Shown here: piece by piece, positions 16,882-62,790 of the stretch
Numbering within the stretch: the first letter of the stretch is position 1
Layout: every line of letters starts with the position of its first letter
Assembly: GCA_043821365.1 (NCBI GenBank)
Contig: JBDRCX010000006.1
Location: 352,001 to 416,000 of the forward strand
Reading direction: 5' to 3'
From: Candidatus Micrarchaeota archaeon
GTDB taxonomy: Archaea; Micrarchaeota; Micrarchaeia; Anstonellales; Bilamarchaeaceae
DNA: 64,000 bases
The notes under the pieces: generated by a model
What the model was told of the DNA's origin: nothing
The model's database searches: none
What the model saw: the letters and a program-made list of their open reading frames with translations, nothing else
Program-made: the position numbers and the translations under genes

Positions 16882-17094
16882 GCTGGGGTCGCCTAGTCCG
16901 GTAGGGCGGCAGGTTGCTATGCGCTTTTTGGAAAAAGCGCCCAAAAACAGATTGTTGAAACTGCTTCGCAGTTTGGGTGTTATCATACAAGAAGCGTGTC
17001 CAAAAACTTAACGAAAAAGTTTTGATCCAACTTTTTCCAAAAGTTGGAAACCTGTTGCGCATTGCGTTCAGGAGTTCAAATCTCCTCCCCGGCG
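16882..17094 (+). tRNA. trnS: tRNA-Ser(GCT) with a 130-nt intron at 37/38 (16920-17049)
   Basis: Acceptor GCTGGGG/CCCCGGC, anticodon GCT at 16916-16918, long variable arm GCGC-ATT-GCGT, T-arm AGGAG-TTCAAAT-CTCCT, G73. Confidence 0.9.
16920..17047. mobile_element. palindromic repeat element (MITE/REP-like) forming the tRNA-Ser intron
   Basis: Left end TGCGCTTTTTGGAAAAAGCGCCCAAAAA; right end (inverted) TTTTGATCCAACTTTTTCCAAAAGTTGG; internal hairpins. Mobility is inferred. Confidence 0.55.
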
Positions 17095-17255
17095 AACGAA
17101 GTGAGCTGGGGGGAGTTTTGTTCGGTTCGCCGAACAATCATTCCTCCCCGGCGTTTTTATTATTTACATTTAGGGTAACAAGTCCAATTCTAATAAATAG
17201 CTCAAAATCTTAATTAGCGTTTATCAATTCCTTTATTATCCTTAGTCTACAACAT

Positions 17256-17882
17256 ATGTATGTGAGAAGAAAACCAATAAGCCAAGATCATGTTGCAGAA
17301 GGGCCTAGCTTTCGCAGATTAGAACGAATTCTTGGGTCAGAACCAGCAAGAGCCTTACGGGAAAAGGATGCTGTTTTTTTAGGTCAGCTTATGCCGATAA
17401 TTGGTAAAAACCTCAAAGGAAAGAAAATCCTTGAAATTGGTCCTGGTCATGGTTTCTTTGTTGAACTTCTTAGAGATCTTGGTGCAGACGCCTATGGCAT
17501 TGATTCTGATATCAATTCCTTCTACCACTACAATAATGCACTTTTTCAAGAATCAATCATTCGTTATGGGGATGCAAGCAACATCAGTGAAAAATTCCCA
17601 AATGAGCAATTTGATTATATTGTTTCAAATGCAGTACTGTGTCGTGAAGGTTTGGTATCATCTTTACACACTGTGAATCCTGACACTGGCAAATACTTTT
17701 CTGCAGAAGAAATGGCCAATAATATACACCGGTCAGTTTTTGAAAGTTTAAAACCAGGCGGAATTACATTCCATTCAACTGCAGAACCCATTCTAGGAAA
17801 TGAACAAACGCTGCAAGATATTGGATATGTAATTCTTTGTAGGACAAAAAACAATCTCATTCTACAAAAACCTGCAAATTGA
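17256..17882 (+). CDS. class I SAM-dependent methyltransferase
   Basis: KILEIGPGHG, AYGIDSD, FDYIVSN, LKPGG. Confidence 0.85.
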   Translation: MYVRRKPISQDHVAEGPSFRRLERILGSEPARALREKDAVFLGQLMPIIGKNLKGKKILEIGPGHGFFVELLRDLGADAYGIDSDINSFYHYNNALFQESIIRYGDASNISEKFPNEQFDYIVSNAVLCREGLVSSLHTVNPDTGKYFSAEEMANNIHRSVFESLKPGGITFHSTAEPILGNEQTLQDIGYVILCRTKNNLILQKPAN

Positions 17883-17886
17883 AAAA

Positions 17887-18360
17887 TCAACCTCCGCATC
17901 CTCCACAACCGCCTCCACATGTTCCACCTGTTATTGGTGCAGATTCAACAATTGGAGCATTGCCATTTTGATCTTCTACAATTAATTTTCCACCACCCAT
18001 ACCCATGGTGCAAGTGATGCTATATGTCCCTGGTTTATCTGCAACAAATTCAATTATGTTGTCACCAGGCACCATTCTTTTTGTGATTCCATAACCCCCA
18101 ATCACTACTGTTTGCATACACCCTCTAAGTGTGTTTGTATCGCCGATTATGGTGAGTTTTGTTCCAACTGTTGTTCTGATTTCCTTTGGTGTGTAGTATC
18201 CATTTGATCCATATCCAAGGGTTATGGTTTGATTACCAGTTACAACCAGGGGTGTGCTGTTTGTGGTTCCTTCTGATTGTGATGATCCAGAAGTTGCATA
18301 TATCCCACCTATCGTTATCAACACCACTAAAATTCCAATCGCAATAATACTTTTATCCAT
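17887..18360 (-). CDS. membrane-anchored cupredoxin-domain (CupA-like) protein with Cys/Gly tail
   Basis: N-terminal TM, GCMQTV and YSITCTMGM; tail GGTCGGGCGGCGG. Start 18360 follows GGAGATGA (track 18387). Confidence 0.8.
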   Translation of the reverse strand: MDKSIIAIGILVVLITIGGIYATSGSSQSEGTTNSTPLVVTGNQTITLGYGSNGYYTPKEIRTTVGTKLTIIGDTNTLRGCMQTVVIGGYGITKRMVPGDNIIEFVADKPGTYSITCTMGMGGGKLIVEDQNGNAPIVESAPITGGTCGGGCGGCGG

Positions 18361-18371
18361 AATTTCATCTC

Positions 18372-30021: not shown

Positions 30022-30197
30022 GGGGTCGTGGCGTAAGGCGTGCACGCAATCCGGTAGCGCGGCTGGCTCCAGATCTCTCTTGCAAATGCAAGAATTTTGA
30101 GCCGCGAAATCAGCATGTTAGAGTTCAACAAACTTTTTTAGTAAAAGAGTTGACAAAAAACTAGCTAAAAAAGTGCGAAAAGATCTCTACGACCCCA
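30022..30197 (+). tRNA. trnW: tRNA-Trp(CCA) with three introns: 15/16 (30037-30049), 37/38 (30073-30108), ~58/59 (30129-30182)
   Basis: Spliced: GGGGTCG TG GCGT AATCCGGTA GCGC G GCTGG CTCCAGA TCAGC ATGT TAGAG TTCAAAT CTCTA CGACCCC A. The 15/16 intron has a perfect H helix GCGT/ACGC. Confidence 0.85.
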
Positions 30198-30277
30198 TTT
30201 TGCTCTTGTAAAATGCGGAACCATTGAATCAAATTCATTATGGCCCCATTTTGCTTATATGTTATTGAGGTGTTATA

Positions 30278-47207: not shown

Positions 47208-47242
47208 AAAGAAACCAAGGTTTCCTTTCTAACCTTCCTTTG

Positions 47243-48553: not shown

Positions 48554-48554
48554 T

Positions 48555-48730: not shown

Positions 48731-48787
48731 ATGTTTTTAAACCTCTCTTAGGATAATATAACCTATTCTTGAGTGTTTCTCAGGTGT

Positions 48788-48990
48788 GGGCCCGTAGCTC
48801 AGTGCGGTTTTTTGGAAAAAAAAGCGCGAGTAGCTTGGATAGAGCGGCAGCCTTCTAACTTAAGGAAAAGATAAATGGCCAGTTTTGGTTCAACATTTTC
48901 CTAAAAGGTTGAAAGCTGTAGGCCAGGGGTTCAAAAGCTTTGCGCTGGCGCGCAAAATTTGCCAGCAAGCTGACAATCCCCTCGGGCCCG
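48788..48990 (+). tRNA. trnR: tRNA-Arg(TCT) with three introns: 15/16 (48803-48833), 37/38 (48858-48913), 59/60 (48936-48976)
   Basis: Spliced: GGGCCCG TA GCTC AGCTTGGATA GAGC G GCAGC CTTCTAA GCTGT AGGCC AGGGG TTCAAAT CCCCT CGGGCCC G. BHB at 15/16 (GCTC/GAGT) and at 59/60 (h' GCTT/AAGC). Confidence 0.9.
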
Positions 48991-49075
48991 TTTTGGTTTG
49001 TTTGTGGAACCAAGGTTCCACACCTCATTTTATTTATTGGGAGTAGACTAATTACAAGAACCAAAGATCAAAAAT

Positions 49076-49666
49076 CTAACTCATCACATCAGATAAAATT
49101 TGATATGCTCTTGCAGTGTCTGCTTGTTTTACCACTAATATTGTATCAGTGTAGCACGAAATAAATTCAACTATATTTATTCCTTCTGAAGCAAGTGCAC
49201 TCAGAATATGGGATATTACACCAGGAACTTCTTCAAGATCTTCTGGACTTTCTATTGTTATTAAATTAAGATTTTCTTCGCTTTTCCAAATCATCTTTTT
49301 CGGAATTTTTTCAAAATCTTTTTGTTCAAGTATATAAGTCACATGCCTACCAGATTTTGCATGGGAAAGTGGTTTTAGTTCATCAATCTCTTTTTTTGTT
49401 ATGGCGACAACTACTTTATTTTTTATTATCATCGAACTCTTTTTCAAGACATTCAATATTCTTCCTTCCAAATCATCCTGCATTTTTTCTATTCTTTTAC
49501 TGCTTCTGATGAGTGCCATTTTTATTGCATCTTCATTCTCACTGCCTATGTCGTCAGCTATTTTTCTGGCCAGTGAAGAATAATTGACAATCCCAGCACG
49601 AATAATATCTTTGAGAAAAGGGCGTTGCTTTAAGTATAACCAAACCAACTCAGATGTACTTGTCAT
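49076..49666 (-). CDS. ACT-domain regulatory protein, divergent from the arg operon
   Basis: N-terminal IVNYSSLARKI...AIKMALIR; C-terminal PGVISHILSALASEGINIVEFISCYTD. Confidence 0.8.
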   Translation of the reverse strand: MTSTSELVWLYLKQRPFLKDIIRAGIVNYSSLARKIADDIGSENEDAIKMALIRSSKRIEKMQDDLEGRILNVLKKSSMIIKNKVVVAITKKEIDELKPLSHAKSGRHVTYILEQKDFEKIPKKMIWKSEENLNLITIESPEDLEEVPGVISHILSALASEGINIVEFISCYTDTILVVKQADTARAYQILSDVMS

Positions 49667-49724
49667 AGTTCTATTTGGAACAAGTATGTCTATAAATGTA
49701 ACATCTGTCGCGTAATATTTAAAT

Positions 49725-51098
49725 ATGAATTTTTACCCACACTCTACCATGAAAGATGCACTAATAAAATTTCTCACTAGTTTAGGTCTTCAAAATGAGC
49801 TTGAACTTTACCTACGCTTGTTCAAGCAAGTGCAACCACACAAATTCGCAGTTGTAAAAATAAGTGGAGCTACACTTTCAGAAAAAATGGATACAGTTGC
49901 AGAAGATCTTGCGTTTCTTTCCAAGTTAGGTCTTTGTCCAATAGTTATTCACGGTGGCGGCAAACCGATAGATGAAGCTCTTAATAAAAAAGGATTAGAA
50001 ATCAAAAAAGTCAATGGTATGCGTATTACTAATAAGGAAGTAATGCTTGTAACCTCTAAAGTTCTAAATAAACTCACAAATCAACTCGTTTCTCTTATTA
50101 ACAAGAAAGGCGGTCATGCTTTGAATATCAATGATTTTGGCATGATTAAACTCAAAAAAAGTGGATCGGTTGGTGGGGTTGACCTTGGCCTTGTAGCAGA
50201 AATAACTGACATAAATATAAATAAGTTTAAGGAATTGTGCGATTTCGGGTATATGCCTGTTCTAGCATCCATGGGTAATATTGATGGCACTTCATTCAAT
50301 GTCAATGCTGATATTCTTGCAAATGCCATTGTCAAAAAAACCAGACCAAAGAAATTTATCCTACTTACTGATACTGGTGGAATATTGGATAAACAAGGGC
50401 AAATAATTTCAGTTATTGATGTTCAATATGATCTTGAACAATTGGTCAATGGAAAGATTATCAGCGATGGCATGCTTTTAAAAGTGCGAGAAATAAAAAA
50501 ACTTCTCCAATTTGTTCCGGATACTGTAGTGGAAATCTGTTCACCTGAAAATCTTCTAAAAGAACTTTTTACTGTCAAAGGAAGTGGGACATTTGTTCGC
50601 TATGGTGGCAATTTTTTGGTCAAGAATAACTTTAAGGAACTGAATACAAAAAAGATCCAGAAGCTTTTGGTAGATAGCTTCTGCAAGGTTCTTAGTGACG
50701 ATTACTTTGACCAACCTATTGATCTTGTAATAGCTGATAAGGATTATTCAGCTGTTGCAATAATAAAGAAAATCTCGGGGCAGCCCTATTTGGATAAATT
50801 TGCAGTTTCAAAAAATGCACAGGGAAATGGTCTTGGCAAAACCGTTTGGTCTATTGTCAAAAAACACTATCCTTCGCTGATATGGCGTTCAAGTTTGGAC
50901 AATCCTATAAATAGCTGGTACTTCAAGAATGCAGATGGAGTTCATAAGAGTGATAAGTGGGCTATTTTTTGGTATAATCTACAACCTTCAACAGTACTGA
51001 TTCAAACAATTTCTAACATAGTTCCTACGTTGGTGAAAAAATGCGATGTGTTTTTTCTGAACCAAAACAACAATTTTGATATGGTGAAAAAATGTTAA
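49725..51098 (+). CDS. argB: acetylglutamate kinase fused to a NAT (DUF619-type) domain, NAGS/K-like
   Basis: VVKISGA, IHGGGKPID, GMRIT, NVNAD, KELFTVKGSGT; C-terminal YLDKFAV...QGNGLG...WRS...NSWYF...W. Confidence 0.9.
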   Translation: MNFYPHSTMKDALIKFLTSLGLQNELELYLRLFKQVQPHKFAVVKISGATLSEKMDTVAEDLAFLSKLGLCPIVIHGGGKPIDEALNKKGLEIKKVNGMRITNKEVMLVTSKVLNKLTNQLVSLINKKGGHALNINDFGMIKLKKSGSVGGVDLGLVAEITDININKFKELCDFGYMPVLASMGNIDGTSFNVNADILANAIVKKTRPKKFILLTDTGGILDKQGQIISVIDVQYDLEQLVNGKIISDGMLLKVREIKKLLQFVPDTVVEICSPENLLKELFTVKGSGTFVRYGGNFLVKNNFKELNTKKIQKLLVDSFCKVLSDDYFDQPIDLVIADKDYSAVAIIKKISGQPYLDKFAVSKNAQGNGLGKTVWSIVKKHYPSLIWRSSLDNPINSWYFKNADGVHKSDKWAIFWYNLQPSTVLIQTISNIVPTLVKKCDVFFLNQNNNFDMVKKC

Positions 51099-52231
51099 TC
51101 CAAGAAGAGAAAAAATATATCATGAGTGCCTATACTCGTTATCCATTAACAATAATAACTGGGGTTGGGTGTCATGCGTATGCTTCAGATGGAAATTGGT
51201 ACTTGGACATGGTTGGTGGCATTGCGTGTTGTCCGTTGGGTCATCAACACCCAGCAGTAAAAGATGCAATTTTGAGCCAGGTCAATAAGCTTACTAATGT
51301 TAGTAATCTTTTCTATACTGAGGAACAAATTGAACTGGCAAAAAAACTTGTCTCTCTTTCTGGATTGAAAAAATGTTTTTTTAGTAACAGTGGTACTGAG
51401 GCTAATGAGGCCGCAATTAAACTAGCAATTGCCAGCACTAAGAAACACGAATTCGTGGTTTGTCAGAATTCTTTTCATGGTCGTACATTTGGTAGTTTAT
51501 CTGCTACGTACGGTAAAAATTACACACAAAAATTTAGCCCACTTCTATCAAAGTTTGATTTTGTTCCATATGGTGATCTATCTGCAATATCAAACGCAAT
51601 AAATGAGAAAACAGCAGCAATACTACTTGAACCAATACAAGGCGAAGCAGGAATTATACTGCCCCATCATGATTATCTAAAAGAATTATCTGAACTTTGT
51701 GAATCAAAGGGAGTGCTATTTATGTTAGATGAAGTCCAAACAGGCAATGGGCGGACCGGTACCTATTTTGAATATCTTTCCCATGGCATAAAACCAGATA
51801 TTGTTACAACTGCAAAAGGTCTGGCAAATGGTCTTCCAATTGGAGTAACATTATCAAATGGTGTTGATTTTGAACCAGGTGACCATGCATCTACATTCGG
51901 AGGCAATTCATTTGTTTGTGCCGTTGCATCTTCTGTTGTTTCAACTATTTCAAAAAATGGGATGATGGAAAATGCTGCAGTTCAGGGAGACTATATTAAA
52001 AATCAAATTCTTAAATTTGATAAAAAAGAAGTAAAGGAAGTTCGGGGCAAGGGACTTATGATTGGTATTGAATTAGATAAACCAGCAAAAGAAAAAATAT
52101 CTAAATTTATGAAACACGGAGTGTTGGTAAATGTTGTAAATGAGAATACCATCAGATTACTTCCGCCTCTTATACTGGTTCAAAAACAAGCAGATCAATT
52201 CCTTTCTGCATTTAACGAGGTAGTATCATGA
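51092..52231 (+). CDS. argD: acetylornithine aminotransferase
   Basis: LDMVGGIA, SNSGTEANE, FHGRT, LEPIQGEAG, DEVQTG, TAKGLANG, STFGGN. Confidence 0.93.
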   Translation: MLIQEEKKYIMSAYTRYPLTIITGVGCHAYASDGNWYLDMVGGIACCPLGHQHPAVKDAILSQVNKLTNVSNLFYTEEQIELAKKLVSLSGLKKCFFSNSGTEANEAAIKLAIASTKKHEFVVCQNSFHGRTFGSLSATYGKNYTQKFSPLLSKFDFVPYGDLSAISNAINEKTAAILLEPIQGEAGIILPHHDYLKELSELCESKGVLFMLDEVQTGNGRTGTYFEYLSHGIKPDIVTTAKGLANGLPIGVTLSNGVDFEPGDHASTFGGNSFVCAVASSVVSTISKNGMMENAAVQGDYIKNQILKFDKKEVKEVRGKGLMIGIELDKPAKEKISKFMKHGVLVNVVNENTIRLLPPLILVQKQADQFLSAFNEVVS

Positions 52232-53130
52232 TCAAAGCAGCGGTTTTGGGTGCTTCTGGTTATTCTGGTAATGAATTAGTCAGCATTTTAGCTAATCATC
52301 CACAGGTTGATCTTGACTTCATACAAAGTAAAAATAATATTGGTAAAAAAGTAACTGGCATCTATCCAGATTCAAAAGTAAATCTCACCTACTCTGATCC
52401 ATCTCTAGAAGAACTCAACAAAGTCGATGTTGTTTTCCTTGCCCTTCCAAAAGAAGAATCACTACGTCTAGCATCAAAACTATCAACTCTAATCATCGAT
52501 CTGAGTCCGGCACATCGATTTCATTCTGAGTATGTTTATGGTCTCCCAGAAATTAATAGAGAAAAAATCAAATCAGCCAATAAAATAGCCAACCCTGGAT
52601 GTTATGCAACTGTTTCGCTTCTGGGTATTTTGCCGTTAACCAAAGTCCAAGTCAATGCCATTGCTTTTGATTGTAAAAGTGGCTATTCAGGTGGTGGTAA
52701 GAGTGTAAAATATGATTTCCAGGAAAATTCTATCCCATACTCTCTTGTTGATCACTATCAAAAACCAGAAATTGCCCAATTTGTTGATGTTCCTTTTTCA
52801 TTTACACCTCATGTTGTTAATGCGTTTCGTGGTCTGATAGCAACTGTTCACATATTTGGTGAATTTGATGATTTGGAATTATTATACCAAAAATTCTACG
52901 AAAAAGAACCGTGTGTTAAAGTTATCAATAGCATACCTGATTTCAAATCAGTTTCTAAGACCCCCTATTGCATGATCGGTGGGATTTCTAAGATGAAGGA
53001 CCATCACATTCTAATAAGTGCTATTGATAATTTGCTAAAAGGTGCTGCTTCACAGGCAGTTCAGAATATGAATATTCGATTTGGTTTTGATGAAAAAACC
53101 AGTTTAGATATTTTTGAGGTGAACTTATGA
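52228..53130 (+). CDS. argC: N-acetyl-gamma-glutamyl-phosphate reductase
   Basis: [42 protein letters not shown]. Confidence 0.95.
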
Positions 53131-54365
53131 ATAAAAAAGTAGTTTTGGCATATTCGGGAGGTTTGGATACCTCGTGTATCCTTAAGTGGTTAGTGGAAAA
53201 AGGATATGAAGTCATAGCATATGTTGGAGATGTTGGGCAGAATGAAGACTTTGAAGTAGTGAAGAAAAAAGCTCTTGAAATTGGTGCATCTAAAGTCTAT
53301 GTTGAAAATTTGCAAAAAGAATTTGTAACTGATTTTATTTTTCCAGCAATAAAAGCAAATGCAATTTATGAAAGTAGATATCTTCTTGGTACTTCACTTG
53401 CACGTCCAGTGATTGCAAGAAAGCAGATGGAAATTGCAGAGAGAGAAAATGCAGAATATGTTTCTCATGGTGCAACCGGGAAAGGCAATGATCAAGTTCG
53501 TTTTGAGCTTACTTATTACGCTCTCAATCCAAAAATCAAGGTCATAGCACCATGGAAAGACTCAGACTTCTTAGCCAAATTCAAAGGCAGAAAAGATCTT
53601 ATTAATTATGCAAATGAAAAAGGGATTCCAATCAAAGCAACTCATGACAAACCATACAGTACTGACGCAAACCTTATGCACATAAGTTATGAATCTGGGA
53701 TGTTAGAAGATCCAAAAACTGCTCCAACTCCGGCAATGTTTGAGTGGACAAAATCACCAAAAGATGCTCCTGATAAAGAAACACACCTTGAAATTCATTT
53801 CAAAGATGGACTTCCAATTAAGGTTGTGAATAAGGAAAATGGGGCTGCAGTGACAGATCCTCTCGAGCTATTAGTTTATTTGAATGAAGTCGGAGCAGAA
53901 AATGGTGTTGGTCGTATTGATATTGTAGAGAACCGTTTTGTTGGTATAAAATCACGTGGAGTTTATGAAACTCCTGGAGTTACGATCTTACGTGCTGCAC
54001 ATTTGGATATAGAATCCATTGCAATGGATCGAGAAGTTATGCGATTGCGTGATATGCTTGAACCAAAATTCTCAGAATTTGTCTATAATGGTTTTTGGTT
54101 TAGTCCTGAGATGGATTTTCTAAATGCTGCAATAAATAAAAGTCAAGAACTTATTGACGGTGTTGTGTATCTTAGTTTGTACAAGGGTAACATAACAATA
54201 ATTGGTAGAGAATCACCAAGTTCACTTTACGACAAGGATCTTTCAAGCATGGATATTGAAGGTGGATTCAATCAAAGTGATTCAGCAGGGTTTATTAAGA
54301 TCAATGCAATTCGATTGATGGCACACAATGCGATTATACATCATAAGAAAAAGCACGGTAATTAG
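53127..54365 (+). CDS. argG: argininosuccinate synthase
   Basis: [48 protein letters not shown]. Confidence 0.97.
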
Positions 54366-54379
54366 TGCAGGTGGTTTTG

Positions 54380-55573
54380 ATGCTTTGGGGAGGAAGATTT
54401 TCTAAAGATCCTAAGAAAAATTTGCTGTTATTCAACAGTTCAGACAATATTTCTGTTGATGAAAAACTTGTTGGATACGATATTGTGGGGAGCATTGCAC
54501 ATGTTAAAATGCTTAATAAGCAAAAGCTTCTCAACAATACTGAAGCAAATGCAATAATCAAAGCACTAAATGAAGTTCTTGCTGAATGGAAATCTGGCAA
54601 ATTTAAATTAGACCCAAATCTTGAAGATGTGCACATGAATGTTGAAGTTGCAGTTACAAAAAAAACACCATTTGGCAAAAAAATGCATACTGCAAGATCA
54701 AGAAATGATCAAATAAATTTAGATATGCGTTTGTACATGCGCGATAATGTGACTAAATTTATTTCGTCATTAAGAACTCTTCAAAAAGCATTCAATTCCC
54801 AAAATAAAATCGAAATACCTGCCCATACCCACACCAGAGTAGCTCAGCCAATTACAACTAAACTCTATTACGATGGCTATTCAACTTCTCTGAATAAAGA
54901 TATCGAACGCCTTAACCAGCTTTACAAAAGAATAAACAAATCACCATTAGGTGCATGTGCAATTTCAGGAACCACCCTTCCAATAGACAGAGATTATACT
55001 GCCAATTTACTTGGTTTTGATGGTATTGAAAAAAATCCAGTCGAAACAATAAGTTCAAGAGGGGAATTGGAAGCAGAATTTGCTTTCATATGCACTCTTA
55101 TTGCCATACAATTATCTCGTTTTGCAGAAGATATGATCTGGTTCAGTTATGTTGGTTTAGTTGAACTACCAGAAGAATACTGTACTGGTAGTAGCATAAT
55201 GCCAAACAAATCAAATCCAGATGTTTTTGAGCTTATTCGTGGGAGATCTGCAAAAGTCCAAGGGAATCTTGTTACTTTACTCACTCTTTTGAAAGGAACT
55301 CCAACAGGACACAATGCAGATACTCAAGAATCAAAAAAAGCAATTATGGAATCAATTGAAACAGTTTCTAGCTGCACTGCTATCCTAGCTGACATAATAC
55401 CGCAGATAAAATGGAATAAAAAGAAAGCCAAAAAGCTGATAGATCAAGGATATGCAAGAGCCACTCTTCTTGCAGATGATCTTGTAAAAAAAGGGATCTC
55501 ATTTAGAGAAGCTCATGAGAAAATTGGTAAATTGATAAAAAGACTCGAAAAAGAAGGAAAATATATCGAGTAA
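54380..55573 (+). CDS. argH: argininosuccinate lyase
   Basis: MLWGGRF, EDVH, HTARSRNDQ, SPLGACA, GSSIMPNKSNPD, FREAH. Confidence 0.95.
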   Translation: MLWGGRFSKDPKKNLLLFNSSDNISVDEKLVGYDIVGSIAHVKMLNKQKLLNNTEANAIIKALNEVLAEWKSGKFKLDPNLEDVHMNVEVAVTKKTPFGKKMHTARSRNDQINLDMRLYMRDNVTKFISSLRTLQKAFNSQNKIEIPAHTHTRVAQPITTKLYYDGYSTSLNKDIERLNQLYKRINKSPLGACAISGTTLPIDRDYTANLLGFDGIEKNPVETISSRGELEAEFAFICTLIAIQLSRFAEDMIWFSYVGLVELPEEYCTGSSIMPNKSNPDVFELIRGRSAKVQGNLVTLLTLLKGTPTGHNADTQESKKAIMESIETVSSCTAILADIIPQIKWNKKKAKKLIDQGYARATLLADDLVKKGISFREAHEKIGKLIKRLEKEGKYIE

Positions 55574-56203
55574 CTAATCATCGTGGTGTATACTGTTTCT
55601 GAATAGTAAAAACAAAATGATCAATGCAGCAACACCTAAAAGTAATACAACTGGTAATAAAAATCCAAGGGGATTTTCTGTACCTGTTTTTACAATAACG
55701 TTTTCCAATCCCTCATTTTGTGGTTCTTGGTTATTTTGTGGTGGTTGAGTATTGTTAACTGCTGGTGGTTCTTCATCTGGAATAACCACTGGTTCTTCTG
55801 GTATTATGGTTGGTTCTTCTGATTGCTCCTCTGGTTCAGTTATATTCTGTCCAGGGAATACATCCGGGGCATCTGATTCCCCACATTGTTCTTCTTGTGG
55901 GCAATAATTTGGTATCATCATCTGCATACATTCTGCGCCCATTTCACTAGGTGACACAACAGGACATTCAACCACTCTACCATCTGGTTTGTAGAATGTA
56001 CTTCCTGCTCCTGGTAATGAAGAAACTACTCTTACAACATTTCCATTACATGTGTAAACTGCTTCTACATTTGCTTCTTTACATTTTGCTGCTGCTGTAT
56101 CCTTAGCAAATTGCTCCCCATTGTCACCTGATTCCCAAATTACAGCAAAACTAAGGGTTAGCATCAATAATACAAATAACACATGCTTTTTCATATACAC
56201 CAA
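55574..56203 (-). CDS. secreted Cys-rich protein with Pro/Glu linker and C-terminal TM
   Basis: Signal peptide, 6 Cys, EEP/PPQNN low-complexity linker, C-terminal hydrophobic anchor. Confidence 0.7.
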   Translation of the reverse strand: MVYMKKHVLFVLLMLTLSFAVIWESGDNGEQFAKDTAAAKCKEANVEAVYTCNGNVVRVVSSLPGAGSTFYKPDGRVVECPVVSPSEMGAECMQMMIPNYCPQEEQCGESDAPDVFPGQNITEPEEQSEEPTIIPEEPVVIPDEEPPAVNNTQPPQNNQEPQNEGLENVIVKTGTENPLGFLLPVVLLLGVAALIILFLLFRNSIHHDD

Positions 56204-56228
56204 TTTATGAAGCAGGCAAATTAAAAAT

Positions 56229-56504
56229 CTACCTCTTAGCCGTAACCATAATCAAATGATATCCAAATTCTGTTTTTACAGGCTTTGATACCACTCCAAC
56301 TGGCAATGAAAAGGCTGCTTCTTCAAATTCCTTTACCATCTGCCCCTTTCCAAAGAATCCTAGTTTTCCTCCATTTTCTCCGCTTGGGCATTTGGAGTGC
56401 TTTTTTGCAATCTTTACAAAATCTGCTCCGTTGTCAATCTCTTTTTTCAACTTATTTGCTGTTTTTTCATCATCCACTAAAATGTGGCTTGCGTTTACCT
56501 GCAT
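56229..56504 (-). CDS. ppiC: parvulin-type peptidyl-prolyl isomerase
   Basis: [15 protein letters not shown]...[23 protein letters not shown]. Confidence 0.95.
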
Positions 56505-56559
56505 GATTTCCCCCCAGAGGCAATGCCTCTAGAACCCCTAATTTATGAGGTTGTTAATA

Positions 56560-57735
56560 TCAAGGTTGTATCCATTCAATTTCATAATATTCATATTCGC
56601 TTCCAGGAAGATCAATTGCTTTTATCACGTAATAAGTGACACTGCTTTCCCTATCTCCAATCCCCATTATCATTTCCAGTCCGTATTGGTTACACTCTGC
56701 CAAAGCCTTTGCAAGTTCTTCTCCACCAATGCATTCATCCTCAGTGAGCGAGTACATCAAATATCGTGGTGTTCCGTCTTTTGGAGTTTCTATCCCTCCT
56801 TTTTTACGGTGATAACAAACAAAATCTAACCTTGGTTTTTTCGGATTAATTTCTATCGAAGTCTTCTTTCCTGGAATTGCAAGTATGAATGTTTTTTTCA
56901 CACTATGAGCTACTCTAATAGCCCTTGCCCATTCCGAAATTATCTGTTTATGCTTTCTTGGGAAAACATGAATAACGTGTTTGGAGTGCATCCATTCGTC
57001 TTCACTTCTTATTGGCGATGCACCTGGGAAATATATTCTGAAATGAGTACCGAATTTGAACCCAGTTTTTATTACATACCCTCGTTTTCTCCAATCCTCA
57101 TATACAGAATACATATCTGAGAAAAACTTCATTCGCTTTTTTGCTATTTTTTCTACATCTCCTACTTTTAGATTTTTTAAGGTTAATTCACCATGCTTCA
57201 GGAGGTAAATTGTTTCGTAAATATCAAGTTTTGATATTTTGCCTCTATGTGCTGCTTTGTAAGTTCCAAATTGTCCTATCCAATACCTTTCATATAATTC
57301 CTTTCCAACTCTTTCATCATCAACTATTGTGATGAGGTCATTTGGGAAGAAAAGTCCTTGGAATGAATACGAATCTATGTCGAAATGCCCTCCTTTGTAC
57401 TTAACGGATATGGATCTCCCATAATTTCCTTCTGCTTCTGTTGCATTCCTGAGTATTAGTCCTTTATCACGATAATCTTTATAGGTCAAATATCTTGCTA
57501 GTAACCTCTTATTTTTTACAAATAGTGCTGCAACGTCATTAAAACCAAATTCATTCCCAACATCATCATAGCATCTGCCATTGCGAATATCCATGATATA
57601 CAGAGCTTCCTCTGGTGTTAGGTAAATTATCCCCCTTTTCATCTGGCCGTAAAAACCGTTTTGTAGAGAAGAAACAGCTGATGGTTCCTTCACAAACAAA
57701 GTACGCTTTTTTCGGTCCAGCTCAAGTTTTATCAT
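56560..57735 (-). CDS. endA: tRNA splicing endonuclease, three-unit epsilon type
   Basis: ~390 aa; partial N unit (LTPEEALY...YKDYRDKG), full catalytic unit (YEDWRKRGY..KTGFKFG.HFRIY, MHS, VAHSVKK), GTYK loop, C-terminal structural unit. Confidence 0.9.
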   Translation of the reverse strand: MIKLELDRKKRTLFVKEPSAVSSLQNGFYGQMKRGIIYLTPEEALYIMDIRNGRCYDDVGNEFGFNDVAALFVKNKRLLARYLTYKDYRDKGLILRNATEAEGNYGRSISVKYKGGHFDIDSYSFQGLFFPNDLITIVDDERVGKELYERYWIGQFGTYKAAHRGKISKLDIYETIYLLKHGELTLKNLKVGDVEKIAKKRMKFFSDMYSVYEDWRKRGYVIKTGFKFGTHFRIYFPGASPIRSEDEWMHSKHVIHVFPRKHKQIISEWARAIRVAHSVKKTFILAIPGKKTSIEINPKKPRLDFVCYHRKKGGIETPKDGTPRYLMYSLTEDECIGGEELAKALAECNQYGLEMIMGIGDRESSVTYYVIKAIDLPGSEYEYYEIEWIQP

Positions 57736-57834
57736 ACACAAACCTCTCGAGCGGAAATTCCGAATTACAATAATTATCTGTGGCTAAGGGTATTAAGCCC
57801 TTTTGGTCTCCTGTTTTTGGGATTACAAACTCCA

Positions 57835-58476
57835 TTATTCGAATTTCAAATCCATAAGTTCTGTGAAGTCTGTTATTACCATCGTCCCTTCATTCACTGT
57901 TATTCTAGCAGGAGATTTTACAATTATCAACTTCATATTTGCTGCCAAAACTGCTTTTGCACCAGAAACAGAATCTTCAATTGCAACACACTCTTCTGGT
58001 TTTAATCCTAATTTTCTTGCTGCATGTAAAAATGGTTCAGGGTCTGGTTTGCGTTTTTCCAATTCATCTCCGCTTACAATAAGATCAAAAAACTTACTAA
58101 GGTTAAAAATGTCAAGTGCAGCCTGTACGTTTGTTCTATGACTACCAGAAACAATTGCGATTTTTAATTTTTTTTCTTTAATTTTTTCAAGAAATTTAAC
58201 TATTCCTGGGGTTAGTGTCAATCTTCCTTCCCTAACTGCTTTTTCATAATTTGATTTTCTTTTTTGTACGAGGTCATCTACTTTTTCAGGTATTTTATAT
58301 TCATCTACCAAAACTTCAAAGATATGTTTAGATCCTGTACCTGCAAACTCATTATACCATCTCTCTTCACTTACCTCAACACCATAAGGTTTAAGAAGCT
58401 CTAAAAACGTCTCCATATGTAGCTTTTCTGATTGCACTACCACGCCGTCAAAATCAAAAAGTATGCCTTTTATTAT
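57835..58476 (-). CDS. HAD-superfamily phosphatase; inferred ATA start at 58476
   Basis: Motif I FDFDG lies upstream of the track start (58443); KPDPEPF, IEDSVSG. An in-frame TAA directly precedes ATA ATA AAA GGC. Confidence 0.85.
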   Translation of the reverse strand: MIKGILFDFDGVVVQSEKLHMETFLELLKPYGVEVSEERWYNEFAGTGSKHIFEVLVDEYKIPEKVDDLVQKRKSNYEKAVREGRLTLTPGIVKFLEKIKEKKLKIAIVSGSHRTNVQAALDIFNLSKFFDLIVSGDELEKRKPDPEPFLHAARKLGLKPEECVAIEDSVSGAKAVLAANMKLIIVKSPARITVNEGTMVITDFTELMDLKFE

Positions 58477-58528
58477 TTAATCATCTCCAAACATGCATTT
58501 TATTAACCATAGGTTACAATAAAATTTC

Positions 58529-59257
58529 ATGAGATTAATCATATTAAGCTTACTGGTTTTTGGATTATTGCTATTCGGATGCTTTGAACCACCAATAGAT
58601 CAAAATCAAACAAACACTACTAATAACACAACAATTATTCAACCAGTTAAAACACCATCATTTACTATCACAAGTCCAACTTCCTATGAATCAATCTACA
58701 CCCAAGAAGAAACTGCAGATGTGACTTTGTCTTTCAATACTCAAAATCTTGTTCTAAAACAACCTGGAGGAGTTGCGAAAAGTGGCGAAGGCCATTTCAA
58801 AGTAACTGTGGATGCTGATCCAGCTGTAACAATAACCTCGAAGAATTATGTTATCGCAGGTTTGGGGCTTGGAGAACACACCATAAGCGTTGATCTGTGG
58901 ACAAATGACAAAAAATCATATGGCATTTCAAAACAAGTAACTTTCACAGTGGAGAAAGAAGAATTGCCAGCATACGAACCACAAACCTATACAGTTACAA
59001 TAAATGATTTCTCTTACAGTCCAGCCGAATTAACTGTAAAAAGAACTGATAGTGTCATCTTTGTGAACTCAGGCAATTTCCCAAGATCCGCAACATGTTT
59101 TATTGGTGGTGCGGAAGTATTCGATACTGAGGTTCTTGGGCCTGGTAAAAATGCCACAATTGTCATGAATGAAGTATTGTCATGTGAGTACTACGCAGTT
59201 ACCCATCCAATAATGAAAGGAATGATAATTGTTGAACCAAATGGTAGAGAAGATTAG
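58529..59257 (+). CDS. lipoprotein with C-terminal plastocyanin-like domain
   Basis: Lipobox LFGC; VTINDFSYSPAELTVK, YYAVTHPIMKG. Confidence 0.75.
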   Translation: MRLIILSLLVFGLLLFGCFEPPIDQNQTNTTNNTTIIQPVKTPSFTITSPTSYESIYTQEETADVTLSFNTQNLVLKQPGGVAKSGEGHFKVTVDADPAVTITSKNYVIAGLGLGEHTISVDLWTNDKKSYGISKQVTFTVEKEELPAYEPQTYTVTINDFSYSPAELTVKRTDSVIFVNSGNFPRSATCFIGGAEVFDTEVLGPGKNATIVMNEVLSCEYYAVTHPIMKGMIIVEPNGRED

Positions 59258-59526
59258 TATTCTATCTCTACTTCTCCTTTTTTTATCCAAATTTGACAGG
59301 CCAATCTTTCATTAGTTTGGCAACTTTTTTTTGCTAAAAGAAGTTCCTCAGTTGGACTTTTACCATTTAGATTTTCCATCCCCTTAATTATCTTGCATAT
59401 GCAAGTTCCGCATGTTCCAGACTCACAACCAAAAAGCATTCCTGTGTCCCTTACATGGTCTAAGAGCCTAGATCCATCTGGAATATCAAGTGTAATATTA
59501 TCATTGATTATCTTTACTTTTGCCAT
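59254..59526 (-). CDS. [2Fe-2S] ferredoxin
   Basis: FGCESGTCGTC...ERLACQ. Confidence 0.92.
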   Translation of the reverse strand: MAKVKIINDNITLDIPDGSRLLDHVRDTGMLFGCESGTCGTCICKIIKGMENLNGKSPTEELLLAKKSCQTNERLACQIWIKKGEVEIEY

Positions 59527-59553
59527 AAAAATCTCCTTTGATTTTTATTATTG

Positions 59554-59678
59554 TTGAGAATGCGTCGCATTCTCGACTGTCATGGAGTTTTGCTCCATAG
59601 CATGATTGTTTCGTAATTGTTCGAATTTCGAACAATTTGCGCCTTGAAATAGCATTTCAAGTGCGTAACGATCAATGC
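59554..59678. ncRNA. free-standing multi-hairpin structured element
   Basis: Four perfect hairpins, two of them closed by an outer helix; one arm (CTTGAAA/TTTCAAG) is shared with the hairpin at 16831-16851. Transcription not shown. Confidence 0.45.
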
Positions 59679-59684
59679 ATAGGA

Positions 59685-60326
59685 TCACTCTGGTTCGTCA
59701 TTAAACAATTTCGTCTGTTTTATTCTCTCCATTGTTTTCCATCGTTTTCTTGTAAATGGGTCTAGAAGCTTCCTTTTTTCTTTATTTTTAAGTGCACCTA
59801 TTGTTCTTTGGTCAGATGGATATCCACTACCAAATTCGCCTGTTATGTGTGCTATATCAACAATCTTTTTATCTCTTATAACTTTTGCACATATTGATGC
59901 TGCAGCAACAATGGGATATTTCTCATCTGCTTTATGTTCTGCTTCAAATTTCTTTATTCCGAACTTTTCCATTCTTTTTCTAAAAGTCCACGAGTATCTA
60001 TCCGGCATGTCTATCATTACGTCGCCATCTTCAGCCTTTTTTATAAGGTCAGCCATAACTTGCGCTTCAATATCATTCAGACTCATTGTTTTCATTAGTT
60101 TATCAAGATCAGTTGCACTTACTTCAATCCATTTGAACAGACAGAACTTTTTCAGTTCCTCATAAACAGTTTCCCTTTGTTTTGGTGTAAGTGCTTTAGA
60201 ATCTTTTGTTGCGGTTTTTTTTAATAATTTTTCGTGTTCACGCTTACAAAGAGCAATACATATGACTAATGGACCTATGACAGATCCTCTTCCAGCTTCA
60301 TCAATTCCGGATATATATGAGAACAT
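59685..60326 (-). CDS. rnhB: ribonuclease HII
   Basis: GIDEAGRGSVIGPLV, KDSK, EHKAD, AAASICAKV, GSGYPSD. Confidence 0.97.
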   Translation of the reverse strand: MFSYISGIDEAGRGSVIGPLVICIALCKREHEKLLKKTATKDSKALTPKQRETVYEELKKFCLFKWIEVSATDLDKLMKTMSLNDIEAQVMADLIKKAEDGDVMIDMPDRYSWTFRKRMEKFGIKKFEAEHKADEKYPIVAAASICAKVIRDKKIVDIAHITGEFGSGYPSDQRTIGALKNKEKRKLLDPFTRKRWKTMERIKQTKLFNDEPE

Positions 60327-60391
60327 AAGTAGGAAATATTAGGCAATAATAGATTAAAAATAAAGAGGTTGAAAGCCAAAGGCTTTCCTAT

Positions 60392-60649
60392 CTAGTATGT
60401 TATGTTTCTTTTTTCTACGATGATAAAGTCCCCAACTGCCAAAACGCTTTCGTATGGGACGTGGACCAATCCATCGTCTTTTTTCAATTTTGAGGCTAAA
60501 TTGCTGTCTGGGTTTGGTTCAATCACTAGCGTTTCAATCTTCCCACTAGACTCATTGACTTCAAGGTCTACCAATCTTCCAAAATCGTCTCCTTCGTTTG
60601 TGACTAATTTCTTCCCAGAAAGTTGTCTTGCTATAAGATACTTGGCCAT
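60392..60649 (-). CDS. PRC-barrel domain protein
   Basis: LSGKKLVTNEGDDFGRLVDL...VPYESVLAVGDFIIV; ATG 60649 after GGTGA. Confidence 0.85.
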   Translation of the reverse strand: MAKYLIARQLSGKKLVTNEGDDFGRLVDLEVNESSGKIETLVIEPNPDSNLASKLKKDDGLVHVPYESVLAVGDFIIVEKRNITY

Positions 60650-60717
60650 TCTATCACCATTCAAATAAATGTTCTATTGGCGATTTGCAGTTTAACTTTA
60701 TAAATATTCCTTAAATT

Positions 60718-62151
60718 TTATGCTCCGGATTTAAAATCCAGCGTATGTAATCGAACTTGTTTCATTTCATATACTGGAACTAGGGCAGGGGTTGGTACAT
60801 GCCCCTGTTTTATCTGAAAATCTGTTCTATCCTGGAATGTCCCTGAATTTATAACTAATGTTCCTCTGTATTGGGTGTACCCGTTCTTATGGACATGGCC
60901 GCAATGGAAAACGTCAGGGGGGTCGTCTATTATCATATAATCGTTGTCTTCGGGAATTATCAAATTCCCGCCGTAAATCGGTGATAAATGTCTTCTTTTT
61001 AGATATTCAACCATTACTTTTTCAGGATGAGTATATGTCGTCTGTGGAATATTTGCTATCATGGAGTCTATTGAGGTTCCGTGATACATAAGGTGTTTTA
61101 TTCCTTCCACATTGAAGCATGATGGGTTACCAACTCGTGTTACATTTGATGTCACATACTCCTTGCTTATTGCTGGTTGTGGTTCTCCTCTTCTTACTGC
61201 ATCATGATTTCCTGGACCAACTATAACTTCAATGTAATCAGGCAAATTTTCGATAAAATCATCAAACATCTTATATTGTTGGAATACGTCCTTTACAATA
61301 AGTTCATTTTCTTGGTTTGGATAAATTCCAATCCCATCAACAATATCGCCTGCAATTGCAAGGTATTTCACTTTTCCTGCAAGTTCTTTTGCCTCTCCTT
61401 TTCCATGAAGCCAGTCAACAAAGACATTCAAATATTTATCGAGGAAATATCTACTTCCAAAATGTATATCTGATAGATATGCTATTGCAACATCATTCTC
61501 TACTTTTTTCTTCTCTCTTATAACTGGCAAGTCTGGCCATTCTATATCCTCTGCAATAAGGTATGGTTCAAGTACTTTTCCAGTTATTGCTATAATATCG
61601 TCTAATATCACAGACTTGGCCTTTCCCATGACTTTTTCATTGAATTTTGATGATGAGATGACAACCTTAAACGTTCCGCTCAGATCCTCAATTTCAAACA
61701 ATAAATTGCCTTTTTTCGTTTCTCTTTTATTACTTATAAAAACAATTACCCGTACGCGTTCATTAAGATGTTTTTTTATATCTGCAAGATCTGCTGTGGG
61801 TACTGAATTACTTCGTCTAAGCATTTTTGAAATCCTTTCAAATCTGTTTCTGAAGTGTGCTATAAAATTATCAACTTCGCCTTTTGTTCTTGATTTTCCT
61901 GTTACGTCTAATGAGTGGTTTATTTTTACGTCTGAAGAATATTCTTTTGCAACTGGTGAAAACTCCGCCTTTCTTATGACTTCAACTTGCGATTCTTTCT
62001 TTGGTTTAATTAGTTCTTCTATGTCTTCTTTTGAAACAAATGGTTTACCCAATCCAATTATCTTCTTTAATAATTCATCCGATGAATTGGCTTTCAAAAA
62101 ATTTTCTGCATCGACAGTAAGTCTGATTCCTTTTCCAACTAATTCATCCAT
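60718..62151 (-). CDS. polB: DNA polymerase D small subunit DP1
   Basis: SDIHFGS, GDIVDG, PGNHD, YHG, RRHLSP, GHVH, NSGTFQ; OB fold. Confidence 0.95.
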   Translation of the reverse strand: MDELVGKGIRLTVDAENFLKANSSDELLKKIIGLGKPFVSKEDIEELIKPKKESQVEVIRKAEFSPVAKEYSSDVKINHSLDVTGKSRTKGEVDNFIAHFRNRFERISKMLRRSNSVPTADLADIKKHLNERVRVIVFISNKRETKKGNLLFEIEDLSGTFKVVISSSKFNEKVMGKAKSVILDDIIAITGKVLEPYLIAEDIEWPDLPVIREKKKVENDVAIAYLSDIHFGSRYFLDKYLNVFVDWLHGKGEAKELAGKVKYLAIAGDIVDGIGIYPNQENELIVKDVFQQYKMFDDFIENLPDYIEVIVGPGNHDAVRRGEPQPAISKEYVTSNVTRVGNPSCFNVEGIKHLMYHGTSIDSMIANIPQTTYTHPEKVMVEYLKRRHLSPIYGGNLIIPEDNDYMIIDDPPDVFHCGHVHKNGYTQYRGTLVINSGTFQDRTDFQIKQGHVPTPALVPVYEMKQVRLHTLDFKSGA

Positions 62152-62158
62152 TTACCCA

Positions 62159-62404
62159 CTAACGTTCATTGTGGCTTTCTAGAGCACTGATAACTGCCCA
62201 TATCTGAGTCCTAGCATGGGCTGGCATGTTTATGTCCTCAGTTATTCCCTCGATAATGTAGATCGCAGCACTGATTTTCACGCTTTTTTCTTCTTCACTA
62301 TCAAGACGTGCTTTTGCTTCAGTTAATGCTCTTCTTATATTCTTTGGAATTCCGGTATCATTAGCTAGTTCGCCTACCATCCCACTTATTTCTTCTAACT
62401 CCAT
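62159..62404 (-). CDS. UPF0147 family protein
   Basis: DTGIPKNIRR...DINMPAHARTQIWAVISALE. Confidence 0.9.
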   Translation of the reverse strand: MELEEISGMVGELANDTGIPKNIRRALTEAKARLDSEEEKSVKISAAIYIIEGITEDINMPAHARTQIWAVISALESHNER

Positions 62405-62501
62405 AACATCACCTGGAAGGCATAAATATTTGCCAAAATTGGTAATAGGAGATTTAATTGCAAAAGTAATTTAAATTAGCCCTTAAATATGGATAAAAAA
62501 T

Positions 62502-62790
62502 TGGGCCTGCTGAGAGCCGCATGATTTCAAGTCTAAACCAGAAATCATTTTGAATACCTGTGCGACTTTTTAGGAAAAAGTCGCCCAAAAACGTGCTTGC
62601 TAATTTTCGCAAAGCGAAAATGGTTTACACCGAAAATCCGAAAGGATTTTCAAACAACCAATTTTTGGGCGCTTTTTTTTCAAAAAGCGCACCTCAGGAC
62701 CTACGGCTTTCATAGGTACTCGCCAGTCTTATACTGTGCTAGAACGTGCCATATAAGACCGTCGCTCTAACCTGGCTGAGCTACAGGCCC
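62502..62790 (-). tRNA. trnI: tRNA-Ile(TAT) with three introns: 37/38 (62709-62751), 53/54 (62555-62692), 59/60 (62516-62548)
   Basis: Spliced: GGGCCTG TA GCTC AGCCAGGTTA GAGC G ACGGT CTTATAA GCCGT AGGTC CTGAG TTCAAAT CTCAG CAGGCCC A. All three junctions fold as BHB; C4-G69, U12-A23 and A73 are Ile-like. Confidence 0.9.
62561..62691. mobile_element. MITE-like element with ~30-bp terminal inverted repeats forming the tRNA-Ile 53/54 intron
   Basis: TGCGACTTTTTAGGAAAAAGTCGCCCAAAAA (62561-62591) and the inverted TTTTTGGGCGCTTTTTTTTCAAAAAGCGCA (62662-62691) around two hairpins. Mobility is inferred. Confidence 0.6.

Follow-up and report, generated by a model that had tools for sequence, protein, structure and literature searches.

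In a stretch of 64,000 nucleotides from a Candidatus Micrarchaeota archaeon of the family Bilamarchaeaceae (GenBank assembly GCA_043821365.1, contig JBDRCX010000006.1, positions 352,001 to 416,000 of the forward strand), referred to here as the window, several tRNA genes are interrupted by introns that carry copies of one palindromic repeat. We consider it probable, at roughly 70%, that these introns belong to a genus-specific family of enzyme-spliced intervening sequences of the bulge-helix-bulge (BHB) type, which has multiplied among tRNA genes and has reached the 23S rRNA gene. According to this reading, the intron is framed by a hairpin unit A beside the 5′ splice site and an inverted unit B beside the 3′ splice site, and the four bases 3′ of unit B would pair with the last bases of exon 1 to form the central BHB helix, called H in the following. 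The transcript would be cut by the epsilon-type tRNA splicing endonuclease EndA that is encoded in the window, the exons would be joined by the RNA ligase RtcB, and new copies would arise by copying into new sites and would sometimes be lost precisely. The window corresponds to G000:C6:352001-416000, in which G000 denotes the genome of the window, a six-contig assembly of 1.198 Mb with 36% G+C that is 87% complete, and C3 and C6 denote contigs of this assembly; G005, G007, G008, G015 and G024 denote the relatives with which it was compared. The DNA of the window is also present in groundwater and biofilm metagenomes.

Anatomy and homology of the repeat family

With default settings, ARAGORN reports no tRNA in the window and Rfam reports a single one at the gathering threshold, and in 20 loci searched with Rfam at E ≤ 1 the exons of multi-intron tRNAs remained undetected. 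Direct reading of four tRNA loci leads to ten putative introns, and following their excision ARAGORN folds standard cloverleaves for all four (Table 1). An earlier note on this DNA had listed seven copies of a palindromic motif in these genes, all of which were found again, each at an intron end, and the three introns that it named do start with (G)TGCG(C/G)TTTTT(T)G. The hairpin unit underlying this motif is composed of an outer stem of 4–6 bp, a run of 4–7 T paired with a run of A, a short loop and a tail, CAAAA(A)C, that follows 0–5 nt beyond the hairpin. The sequence of the stem is variable while its pairing is kept, and the outermost bases are the most variable part of the whole unit. On the strand that bears the tail, 46 of 51 units have a loop rich in G (GG, AGG, GGT, AG or AGT). 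Unit B is the reverse complement of unit A at the DNA level, loop and tail included, so that the two form terminal inverted repeats, and the tails point inward in A/B pairs.

The unit is far more frequent than expected by chance. A strict pattern, defined by four paired outer bases, T4-9, a short loop, A4-9 and CAAAA within 5 nt, occurs in 52 copies in the 1.198-Mb genome compared with a mean of 2.6 in ten order-3 Markov genomes, a 20-fold excess. If pairing is not required, all four outer pairs are still present in 50 of the 81 matches to core plus tail, where 5.8 would be expected with the arms shuffled among the matches; these matches contain 17 different stem tetramers, and the conservation of pairing across them supports the hairpin by covariation. 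Complementarity between the loops of units A and B was considered as a further case of covariation and was rejected, since the two loop exceptions (CGT and C) are without a compensating change between A and B and the sample is too small.

Many of the units are arranged as inverted pairs 70–130 nt apart, and about 12 of the introns are full-length elements of 105–140 nt that are mutually homologous. Their parts stand in a fixed order: unit A with CAAAA(A)C is joined by a linker resembling TTGTTGA to hairpin I (AAAAYCC..GGRTTTT), which is followed by hairpin II (ATTTTCG..CGAAAAT), a linker resembling TAGCAAG, GTTTTG and, in inverted form, unit B. Copies from the D-loop, from position 37/38 and from position 53/54 of different tRNAs align end to end, with the four hairpins in one order. 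A covariance model of the full element, termed R1 and built on eight copies from G000, has both-sided changes at 10 of its 24 pairs; it scores 96–121 bits on its eight source copies, 55–70 bits on four more tRNA copies in G000 and 60–109 bits on copies in other species, and the highest match of the genome, with 121 bits, is the 53/54 element of tRNA-Ile(UAU). Paralogues are 60–78% identical. The hosts of full-length elements are Gln(CUG) in the D-loop, Ile(UAU) at 53/54, Pro(GGG) at two sites in the T-arm, Thr(CGU), Thr(UGU), Pro(CGG), Ser(GCU), Gly(CCC) and Asn(GUU) at 37/38, and the T-loop of a class II tRNA read as Ser(GGA), several of these anticodons having been read by eye. For many other copies in G000, excision likewise gives tRNAs in a single-deletion ARAGORN scan, which resolves single-intron genes but is noisy for anticodon-loop introns, where many alternative anticodons appear, and which was used only to show that a tRNA spans the junction. 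One genome thus carries homologous introns in tRNAs of different isotypes and at different positions, as the earlier note had claimed in postulating one repeat family concentrated in tRNA introns.

Besides the full-length elements, unit A stands alone in many introns and unit B alone in a few. A short form was read directly at Ala(GGC) 37/38, in the D-loop of Leu(CAG) and at Pro(CGG) 53/54, where the 5′ arm, loop, 3′ arm and tail of a unit are followed by a repetition of the 3′ arm, a tetramer complementary to the end of exon 1 and two further bases. As the repeated 3′ arm pairs with the 5′ arm of the unit, these short forms have a canonical hBHBh′ structure. In the window, the 36.2 bits that R1 gives to tRNA-Arg(UCU) extend across 48802-48912.

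Putative splice sites, orientation and turnover at orthologous sites

The geometry of the splice sites was assessed for the ten introns of the window by a scripted strict BHB test, with a 4-bp H and 3-nt bulges. The Ile 53/54 element has a canonical BHB in which H (CCTG/CAGG) pairs in 4/4 positions and the helix h′ (TGCG/CGCA, 4 bp) forms between an A arm and a B arm. The suggestion of the earlier note that the inverted ends supply h′ applies to this element, beside its perfect 4-bp H, and fails for Ser 37/38, which has three G-U pairs in H and end stems that are not complementary, so that no h′ forms between the ends; in introns of the latter kind the splice site at either end is flanked by a separate hairpin. 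The 13-nt D-loop intron of tRNA-Trp has a perfect H and a perfect h′, and H pairs in 3/4 positions in the Trp T-loop, Arg T-loop, Ile 37/38 and Ile 59/60 introns. In the introns of the family, the foot of unit A lies 1–2 nt from the 5′ splice site and the foot of unit B 0–8 nt from the 3′ splice site. Site-specific H pairs were also read directly in Pro(CGG), Gly(CCC), Leu(CAG), Ala(GGC) and an insert in the 23S rRNA gene. The tetramer 3′ of unit B, which pairs with exon 1, varies between sites (CAGG, CATG, CGGA, GGAA, GACC) and therefore belongs to the individual insertion and not to the repeat. Furthermore, 20 of 23 copies form a more stable fold as the sense strand than as the antisense strand (mean −3.7 kcal/mol, Wilcoxon p = 2e-4).

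The enzyme presumed to excise these introns is the EndA of the window (Table 1), which is of the epsilon type and is matched end to end by the three-unit epsilon2 EndA of Candidatus Micrarchaeum acidiphilum ARMAN-2. In vitro, that epsilon2 EndA cleaves strict BHB motifs as well as relaxed ones (PMC3239211); this broad specificity was shown for the ARMAN-2 enzyme and not for the EndA of the window. Each of the five relatives checked encodes EndA, among them G008, which is without a match to the full-length element; its identity to the G000 protein is 91% in G024 and 86% in G015, and other relatives of the enzyme are found in genomes labelled Candidatus Micrarchaeota, Bilamarchaeum or Bilamarchaeaceae. 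Besides the self-sufficient epsilon2 enzyme, G000 contains a second, short EndA-like gene (171-aa frame, G000:C6:480614-480853).

All copies that can be oriented lie in the sense direction of their host. The eight model copies, oriented by MAFFT from sequence alone, are all sense to the host tRNA, and in G000 the sense strand also receives the higher score for another two to four copies, which results in 10–12 of 12 for this genome. For the best R1 match in each of 11 other species, some of them orthologous, excision gives a tRNA on the same strand in 11/11 cases. A first MAFFT orientation had placed the Ser element antisense; this was overruled by nhmmer and by the covariance model (69.8 bits sense versus 50.5 antisense), and the A-side linker GATTGTTGA confirms the sense orientation.

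Within the genus, 18 of 24 other genomes contain matches to R1, and none was found in 16 genomes that represent other genera of the order; the number of matches per genome ranges from 0 to 27 within the genus. Genomes without an R1 match have 26–39 tRNAs detectable by Rfam, with the exception of one genome that is 73% complete, and genomes with at least 15 matches have 13–18; the Spearman correlation between both numbers is −0.59, computed over genomes that are related and not independent. At single sites, the search for empty alleles that the earlier note had proposed was successful, the orthology of the compared sites being supported by the conserved neighbourhood with EndA. The Ser(GCU) gene is intronless in G005, G024, G007 and G008, and G015 contains a collinear element with 79% identity. 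As G024 is closer to G000 than G015 by EndA identity, the presence of the Ser intron in G000 and G015 and its absence from G024 suggests a precise loss in G024. The T-arm of Ile(UAU) has no intron in G008, three different 58/59 introns in G007, G005 and G015, two of which start with a unit, a 56-nt unit-bearing 53/54 intron together with a 59/60 intron in G024, and the 138-nt 53/54 element together with a 59/60 intron in G000; the 37/38 intron of the same gene is common to all five relatives examined and is the sole intron of the G008 orthologue. The T-loop intron of tRNA-Trp is found in G024 and G015, and in G007 and G005 the BLAST match ends short of it. Moreover, the 23S rRNA of G000 contains a 53-nt insert that starts with a unit and has H = CATG/CATG, which is missing from G005, G007 and G024, whose 23S rRNAs align without it. 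Filled and empty orthologous sites mean that introns were gained or lost in evolution, the two directions not being separated by this comparison.

No target-site duplication was found at the three insertions that can be resolved by comparing filled and empty sites (Ser 37/38, Ile 53/54 and 23S): the Ser insertion leaves a 1-nt ambiguity, the Ile insertion none, and the apparent repeat at the 23S site is the palindromic H helix CATG. Contigs assembled from four DNA runs were compared over window positions 43500-63400, and none joins across the introns of tRNA-Arg or tRNA-Ile; one contig from a biofilm metagenome spans tRNA-Arg, its three introns included, without difference, and contigs terminate within the Ile element, which would be expected of a repeat.

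Table 1. Interrupted tRNA genes, introns of the repeat family and the EndA gene, with positions in the window
Feature	Positions	Strand	Details
tRNA-Ser(GCU)	16882..17094	+	Exons 16882-16919 and 17050-17094; spliced form an 83-nt class II tRNA-Ser(gct) by ARAGORN
Ser 37/38 intron, full-length element, 130 nt	16920..17049	+	Unit A 16921-16948 (GCGC stem); inverted unit B 17020-17047 (CAAC/GTTG stem)
tRNA-Trp(CCA)	30022..30197	+	Introns 30037-30049 (13 nt), 30074-30109 (36 nt) and 30129-30182 (54 nt); spliced form a 73-nt tRNA-Trp(cca) by ARAGORN
Trp T-loop (58/59) intron, 54 nt	30129..30182	+	Degenerate unit A (30129-30160) at the start
tRNA-Arg(UCU)	48788..48990	+	Introns 48803-48834, 48859-48914 and 48935-48975; spliced form a 74-nt tRNA-Arg(tct) by ARAGORN
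Arg D-loop intron, 32 nt	48803..48834	+	Degenerate unit A (TGCGGTTTTTTGGAAAAAAAAGCGC) at the start, without the CAAAA tail
Arg anticodon-loop (37/38) intron, 56 nt	48859..48914	+	Inverted unit B at the end, 48878-48912: GTTTTGG, then hairpin TTCAAC..GTTGAA
tRNA-Ile(UAU)	62502..62790	-	Introns 62709-62751 (37/38), 62555-62692 (53/54) and 62516-62548 (59/60); spliced form a 75-nt tRNA-Ile(tat) by ARAGORN
Ile 53/54 intron, full-length element, 138 nt	62555..62692	-	Unit A 62662-62691, hairpins I and II, unit B 62561-62591
tRNA-Leu(UAA)	786..923	+	Rfam tRNA 44.8 bits; ARAGORN with introns allowed gives Leu(taa) with a 52-nt intron
Epsilon-type tRNA splicing endonuclease EndA, 393 aa	56560..57741	-	End-to-end match to PDB 4FZ2 (ARMAN-2 three-unit epsilon2 EndA), E = 3.5e-132; two tRNA_int_endo stretches

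Copies outside introns and competing explanations

Within the window, a search of the whole sequence with R1 and with filters off returned only the four tRNA genes named in the earlier note, which agrees with its statement that no copy lies outside tRNA introns there. Across the genome, the strict units are indeed concentrated in tRNA introns, and the family is not confined to them: a reading of the flanks of 51 strict entries placed 36 within introns, spread over 22 tRNA genes, 3 directly at tRNA ends, 1 in the 23S rRNA intron and 11 elsewhere, mostly in spacers between open reading frames, and about a fifth of the strict copies are outside introns. The units at tRNA ends are in the leaders of Ala(GGC) and His and in the trailer of Leu(CAA), and the trailer of tRNA-His has a weaker unit. 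Another weaker hairpin unit begins 2 nt 3′ of a candidate RNase P RNA (G000:C6:111852-112172), which covers the full length of the model and reaches 37.5 bits, below the gathering score of 84. The intergenic copies are mostly half-elements, and the strand preference of the covariance model is weak there and was given no weight; some of them adjoin, as read directly, only very short open frames. One subtype of the unit, GAAAC..GTTTC-ATCAAAA, is nearly identical at four places in G000 and 91–97% identical at several places in G005, G007 and G024. Two intergenic units (G000:C6:186918-186945 and C6:707615-707644) have in common a 12-nt block outside the hairpin foot, (A/C)CTCATTTCCGC, and a TTGCTA linker inside, which points to a larger composite repeat that is not tied to any tRNA.

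The GAAAC..GTTTC-ATCAAAA subtype was also found by an exact-pattern scan on nine viral-class contigs. A terminase and a portal protein are encoded on one of these contigs and an MCM helicase on another, and in either case the unit is located just upstream of a Shine-Dalgarno sequence and ATG, as is the unit at C6:209940 in G000. Several of the viral matches (18–25% G+C, A-only loops) may be chance or convergent terminator hairpins. Only those on the contigs L175, L176, L177 and L179 look like true units, and they may be taken as a lead but not as evidence of transfer. Dense arrays of this subtype in two orientations, which may reflect homology or convergence, are present on L176 (IMGVR_UViG_3300025141_000017, 239 kb, 20% G+C) and L179 (GVMAG-M-3300010151-7), in sequence of 18–20% G+C, with nine units in 11 kb and four in 2 kb and with some A/B pairs about 60 nt apart.

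These copies bear on the question whether the family is a DNA transposon, as the earlier note had proposed in describing it as a MITE/REP-like element, i.e., akin to miniature inverted-repeat transposable elements (MITEs) or repetitive extragenic palindromes (REPs). Such a non-autonomous element would be mobilised in trans by a transposase, would insert anywhere by its palindromic inverted ends and would survive in tRNA and rRNA genes by being spliced. Like MITEs and REP/RAYT (IS200-IS605, HUH) elements, the family is short, non-coding and multi-copy, its ends are inverted repeats of which each is a palindrome, with the orientation of the loop and the true reverse complementarity of B to A noted above, and some copies reside in intergenic spacers. 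The exact matches of one subtype on viral-class contigs, one with terminase and portal protein, the variation of copy number within one genus and the empty orthologous sites in sister species would also fit a transposon. The family differs from these elements in that target duplications are missing at all three resolved insertions and in that its outermost bases, which transposases usually need, are the most variable ones. The end hairpins of IS200/IS605 elements are recognised on one strand and are not tail-inward inverted units. No pair of units A and B 200–8000 nt apart encloses a gene in G000, the only pairs at this spacing being within two multi-intron tRNA genes, and hence no long copy carries a gene. 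The search for an HUH/RAYT transposase that the earlier note had proposed yielded Y1/HUH proteins in 7 of 31 genomes of the genus, with one Y1_Tnp gene in G000 (C3:96659-97006) and none at E ≤ 0.001 in six high-copy genomes (G006, G011, G015, G019, G022 and G024; 75–88% complete); the presence of Y1/HUH does not track the copy number of the element across the 31 genomes, a survey restricted to this transposase family. The strict orientation relative to transcription (10–12 of 12 in G000, 11/11 elsewhere) is not predicted by an orientation-blind transposon with symmetric ends, unit A occurs alone in many introns, and the 4-nt complement by which each copy pairs with its exon is particular to that site, something a transposon cannot bring in. 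Together, these transposon-type tests argue against a MITE or a REP/RAYT-type element, which we now consider unlikely, and they do not identify the route of spread. Given the strict sense orientation, the lack of target duplications and of a Y1/HUH transposase that tracks the copies, spreading spliced introns fit better than a DNA MITE, and spread at the RNA level or otherwise oriented by transcription fits the evidence better than cut-and-paste DNA transposition.

In a second explanation, which we judge quite unlikely, the unit is primarily a cellular and viral signal for RNA ends, marking cleavage at the hairpin foot and/or acting as an oligo-T terminator at the ends of introns, tRNAs and RNase P RNA and upstream of ribosome-binding sites, so that introns would be just one of its settings. 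It accounts for the observation that the hairpin foot always faces the retained RNA, which at both ends of an intron is an exon. The foot lies 2–3 nt from the 5′ end of tRNA-Ala(GGC) and tRNA-His, 1–3 nt from the 3′ end of tRNA-His, tRNA-Leu(CAA) and the RNase P RNA candidate, and the B-type units at C6:209940 and on the two viral-class contigs are 0–12 nt upstream of Shine-Dalgarno and ATG; in addition, core and tail show more conservation than a BHB would require. However, among about 22 tRNAs examined just 3–4 have a unit at an end, the rest having plain leaders and T-run trailers, which led us to reject the units as a general signal for tRNA end processing. The presence and absence of a unit at the same site in close species makes it dispensable there, and the intergenic copies that adjoin only very short open frames also speak against such a function. 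It is very improbable that no copying took place and that AT-rich hairpins arose independently in each intron, favoured by the splicing enzyme in a genome of 36% G+C, since the low complexity of T-run/A-run hairpins in an AT-rich genome and the differing outer stems would suit this explanation but the homology over 105–140 nt with two inner hairpins and the linkers TTGTTGA and TAGCAAG in fixed order, together with R1 scores across tRNAs and species and the excess of strict units over the Markov genomes, already contradicts it.

Several observations weigh against a family of spreading spliced introns. Splicing, and even the use of these tRNA genes, is something we infer from their sequence, and the scores of the strict test are poor for the Ser 37/38, Arg 37/38 and Arg D-loop introns. 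Runs of T5-T7 within tRNA genes should hinder transcription in archaea. In those strict units that lie outside introns, the term ‘intron’ explains nothing, and core, loop and tail are more conserved than recognition by EndA would seem to require. Copying of RNA alone cannot create a unit B that is the reverse complement of unit A, and a search for the reverse transcriptase domain RVT_1 (PF00078) in G000, a genome 87% complete, found none. A recent burst is not apparent, as paralogues are just 60–78% identical, and the contigs from other samples contain no strain-level polymorphism, which gives no evidence either way on recent mobility. A more specific version of events, possible but doubtful in our view, is that of a transcription-oriented mobile intron, whose excised RNA, guided by the 4-nt complement beside unit B, would be re-inserted by EndA cleavage and RtcB ligation into any transcript able to form a BHB with it, with subsequent fixation in DNA, or alternatively that of a unit serving as a general ‘cut at my foot’ RNA-processing signal common to host and virus. 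If true, the mobile-intron version would account for the sense orientation, the clean insertions and the site-specific H pairs as well as for the copies in tRNA leaders and trailers, in operon spacers and on viral-class contigs.

Apart from the strict units, further sequences are associated with tRNA genes of this genome. The anticodon-loop intron of tRNA-Leu(UAA) in the window contains a diverged unit, GAAACTT..AAGTTC followed by CATCAAA, and the anticodon UAU of tRNA-Ile is genomically encoded in this lineage (window 62752-62790 and orthologues). A conserved leader module, TTCGCGAAAAT(T/C)..GA(A/T)TTTTCACGAT, adjoins the 5′ end of tRNA-Ser(GCU) (window 16850-16881) and is also found 5′ of tRNA-Leu(CAG) and of another tRNA-Leu (G000:C6:327260-327294, C3:26727-26780); it may be a promoter or a leader-processing element. 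A second repeated cassette, TTTT(G/T)GTTTGTTTG with a GC-rich hairpin (GTGGAACC..GGTTCCAC or GGGGGnACGCCCCC), is located 3′ of several tRNAs and 5′ of the RNase P RNA candidate (window 48991-49030; G000:C3:57980-58024, C6:463308-463345, C6:111805-111850). Finally, tRNA-Trp and tRNA-Pro(CGG) have in common a conserved trailer of ~60 nt, GACCCCATTTT..TAAAATG..GGAACCATTGAA..TTCA..GGCCCCATTTT (window 30198-30255; G000:C3 about 74880-74940).

Relation to known archaeal introns and significance

In archaea, BHB introns outside tRNA genes are known from the rRNAs of Crenarchaeota and from the pre-mRNA of cbf5. Like these, the 23S insert is a short BHB-flanked insert in a non-tRNA gene that the same EndA and ligase would remove; unlike these, it belongs to the same repeat family as the tRNA introns. 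For Thermoproteales, Fujishima et al. in 2010 reportedly described a ‘large-scale tRNA intron transposition’. Similar introns common to different tRNAs of this order were interpreted as the result of intron transposition by an unknown mechanism; they were taken for late acquisitions, with BHB junctions presumably restricting the sites at which introns persist (PMC4090602; 10.64898/2026.10.13.758758). These shared tRNA introns of Thermoproteales are the closest described phenomenon, and the family of Micrarchaeota is a variant of it and not a new kind of mobile element. The two differ in that the present case concerns a DPANN lineage with an epsilon2 EndA instead of an (alpha-beta)2 EndA, in the modular anatomy of inverted tailed hairpin units with two inner hairpins, in the additional copies in 23S rRNA, at tRNA ends and in spacers, and in that strict sense orientation and clean empty sites are documented for the Micrarchaeota family.

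The closest described organism is ARMAN-2, in which, according to the passages retrieved, 56% of the tRNA genes are disrupted, with examples including introns at 53/54 and 59/60 of one T-arm and a 37/38 intron in tRNA-Ile(UAU) (PMC3239211). As far as can be judged from these passages, both lineages have the same EndA architecture, over half of the tRNA genes interrupted and, in the present case as predicted structures, relaxed BHB junctions, and they differ in that the ARMAN-2 introns assayed there were 13–25 nt long compared with 105–140 nt in the family described here (PMC3239211). The retrieved passages of PMC3239211 and full-text literature searches contain no description of a repeated family of homologous introns or of a terminal hairpin unit. 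A census of Asgard archaea in 2026 found no general route by which BHB introns arrive (10.64898/2026.10.13.758758). What is new here is the genus-wide distribution, the filled and empty orthologous sites, the sense orientation, the negative tests for a transposase and for target duplications, and the 23S insert.

The family provides a second natural system in which the spread of enzyme-spliced archaeal introns can be studied. It is a tractable case, as it combines an intron family of defined anatomy in dozens of copies with clean filled and empty sites, sense orientation and an EndA that has a relative of solved structure, and these features lead to testable predictions that separate insertion at the RNA level from insertion at the DNA level. 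Moreover, standard finders miss over half of the tRNA genes here, with 18 Rfam matches compared with 39 in an element-free relative, so that estimates of completeness and of decoding capacity for DPANN genomes are distorted by tRNAs that such finders do not detect.

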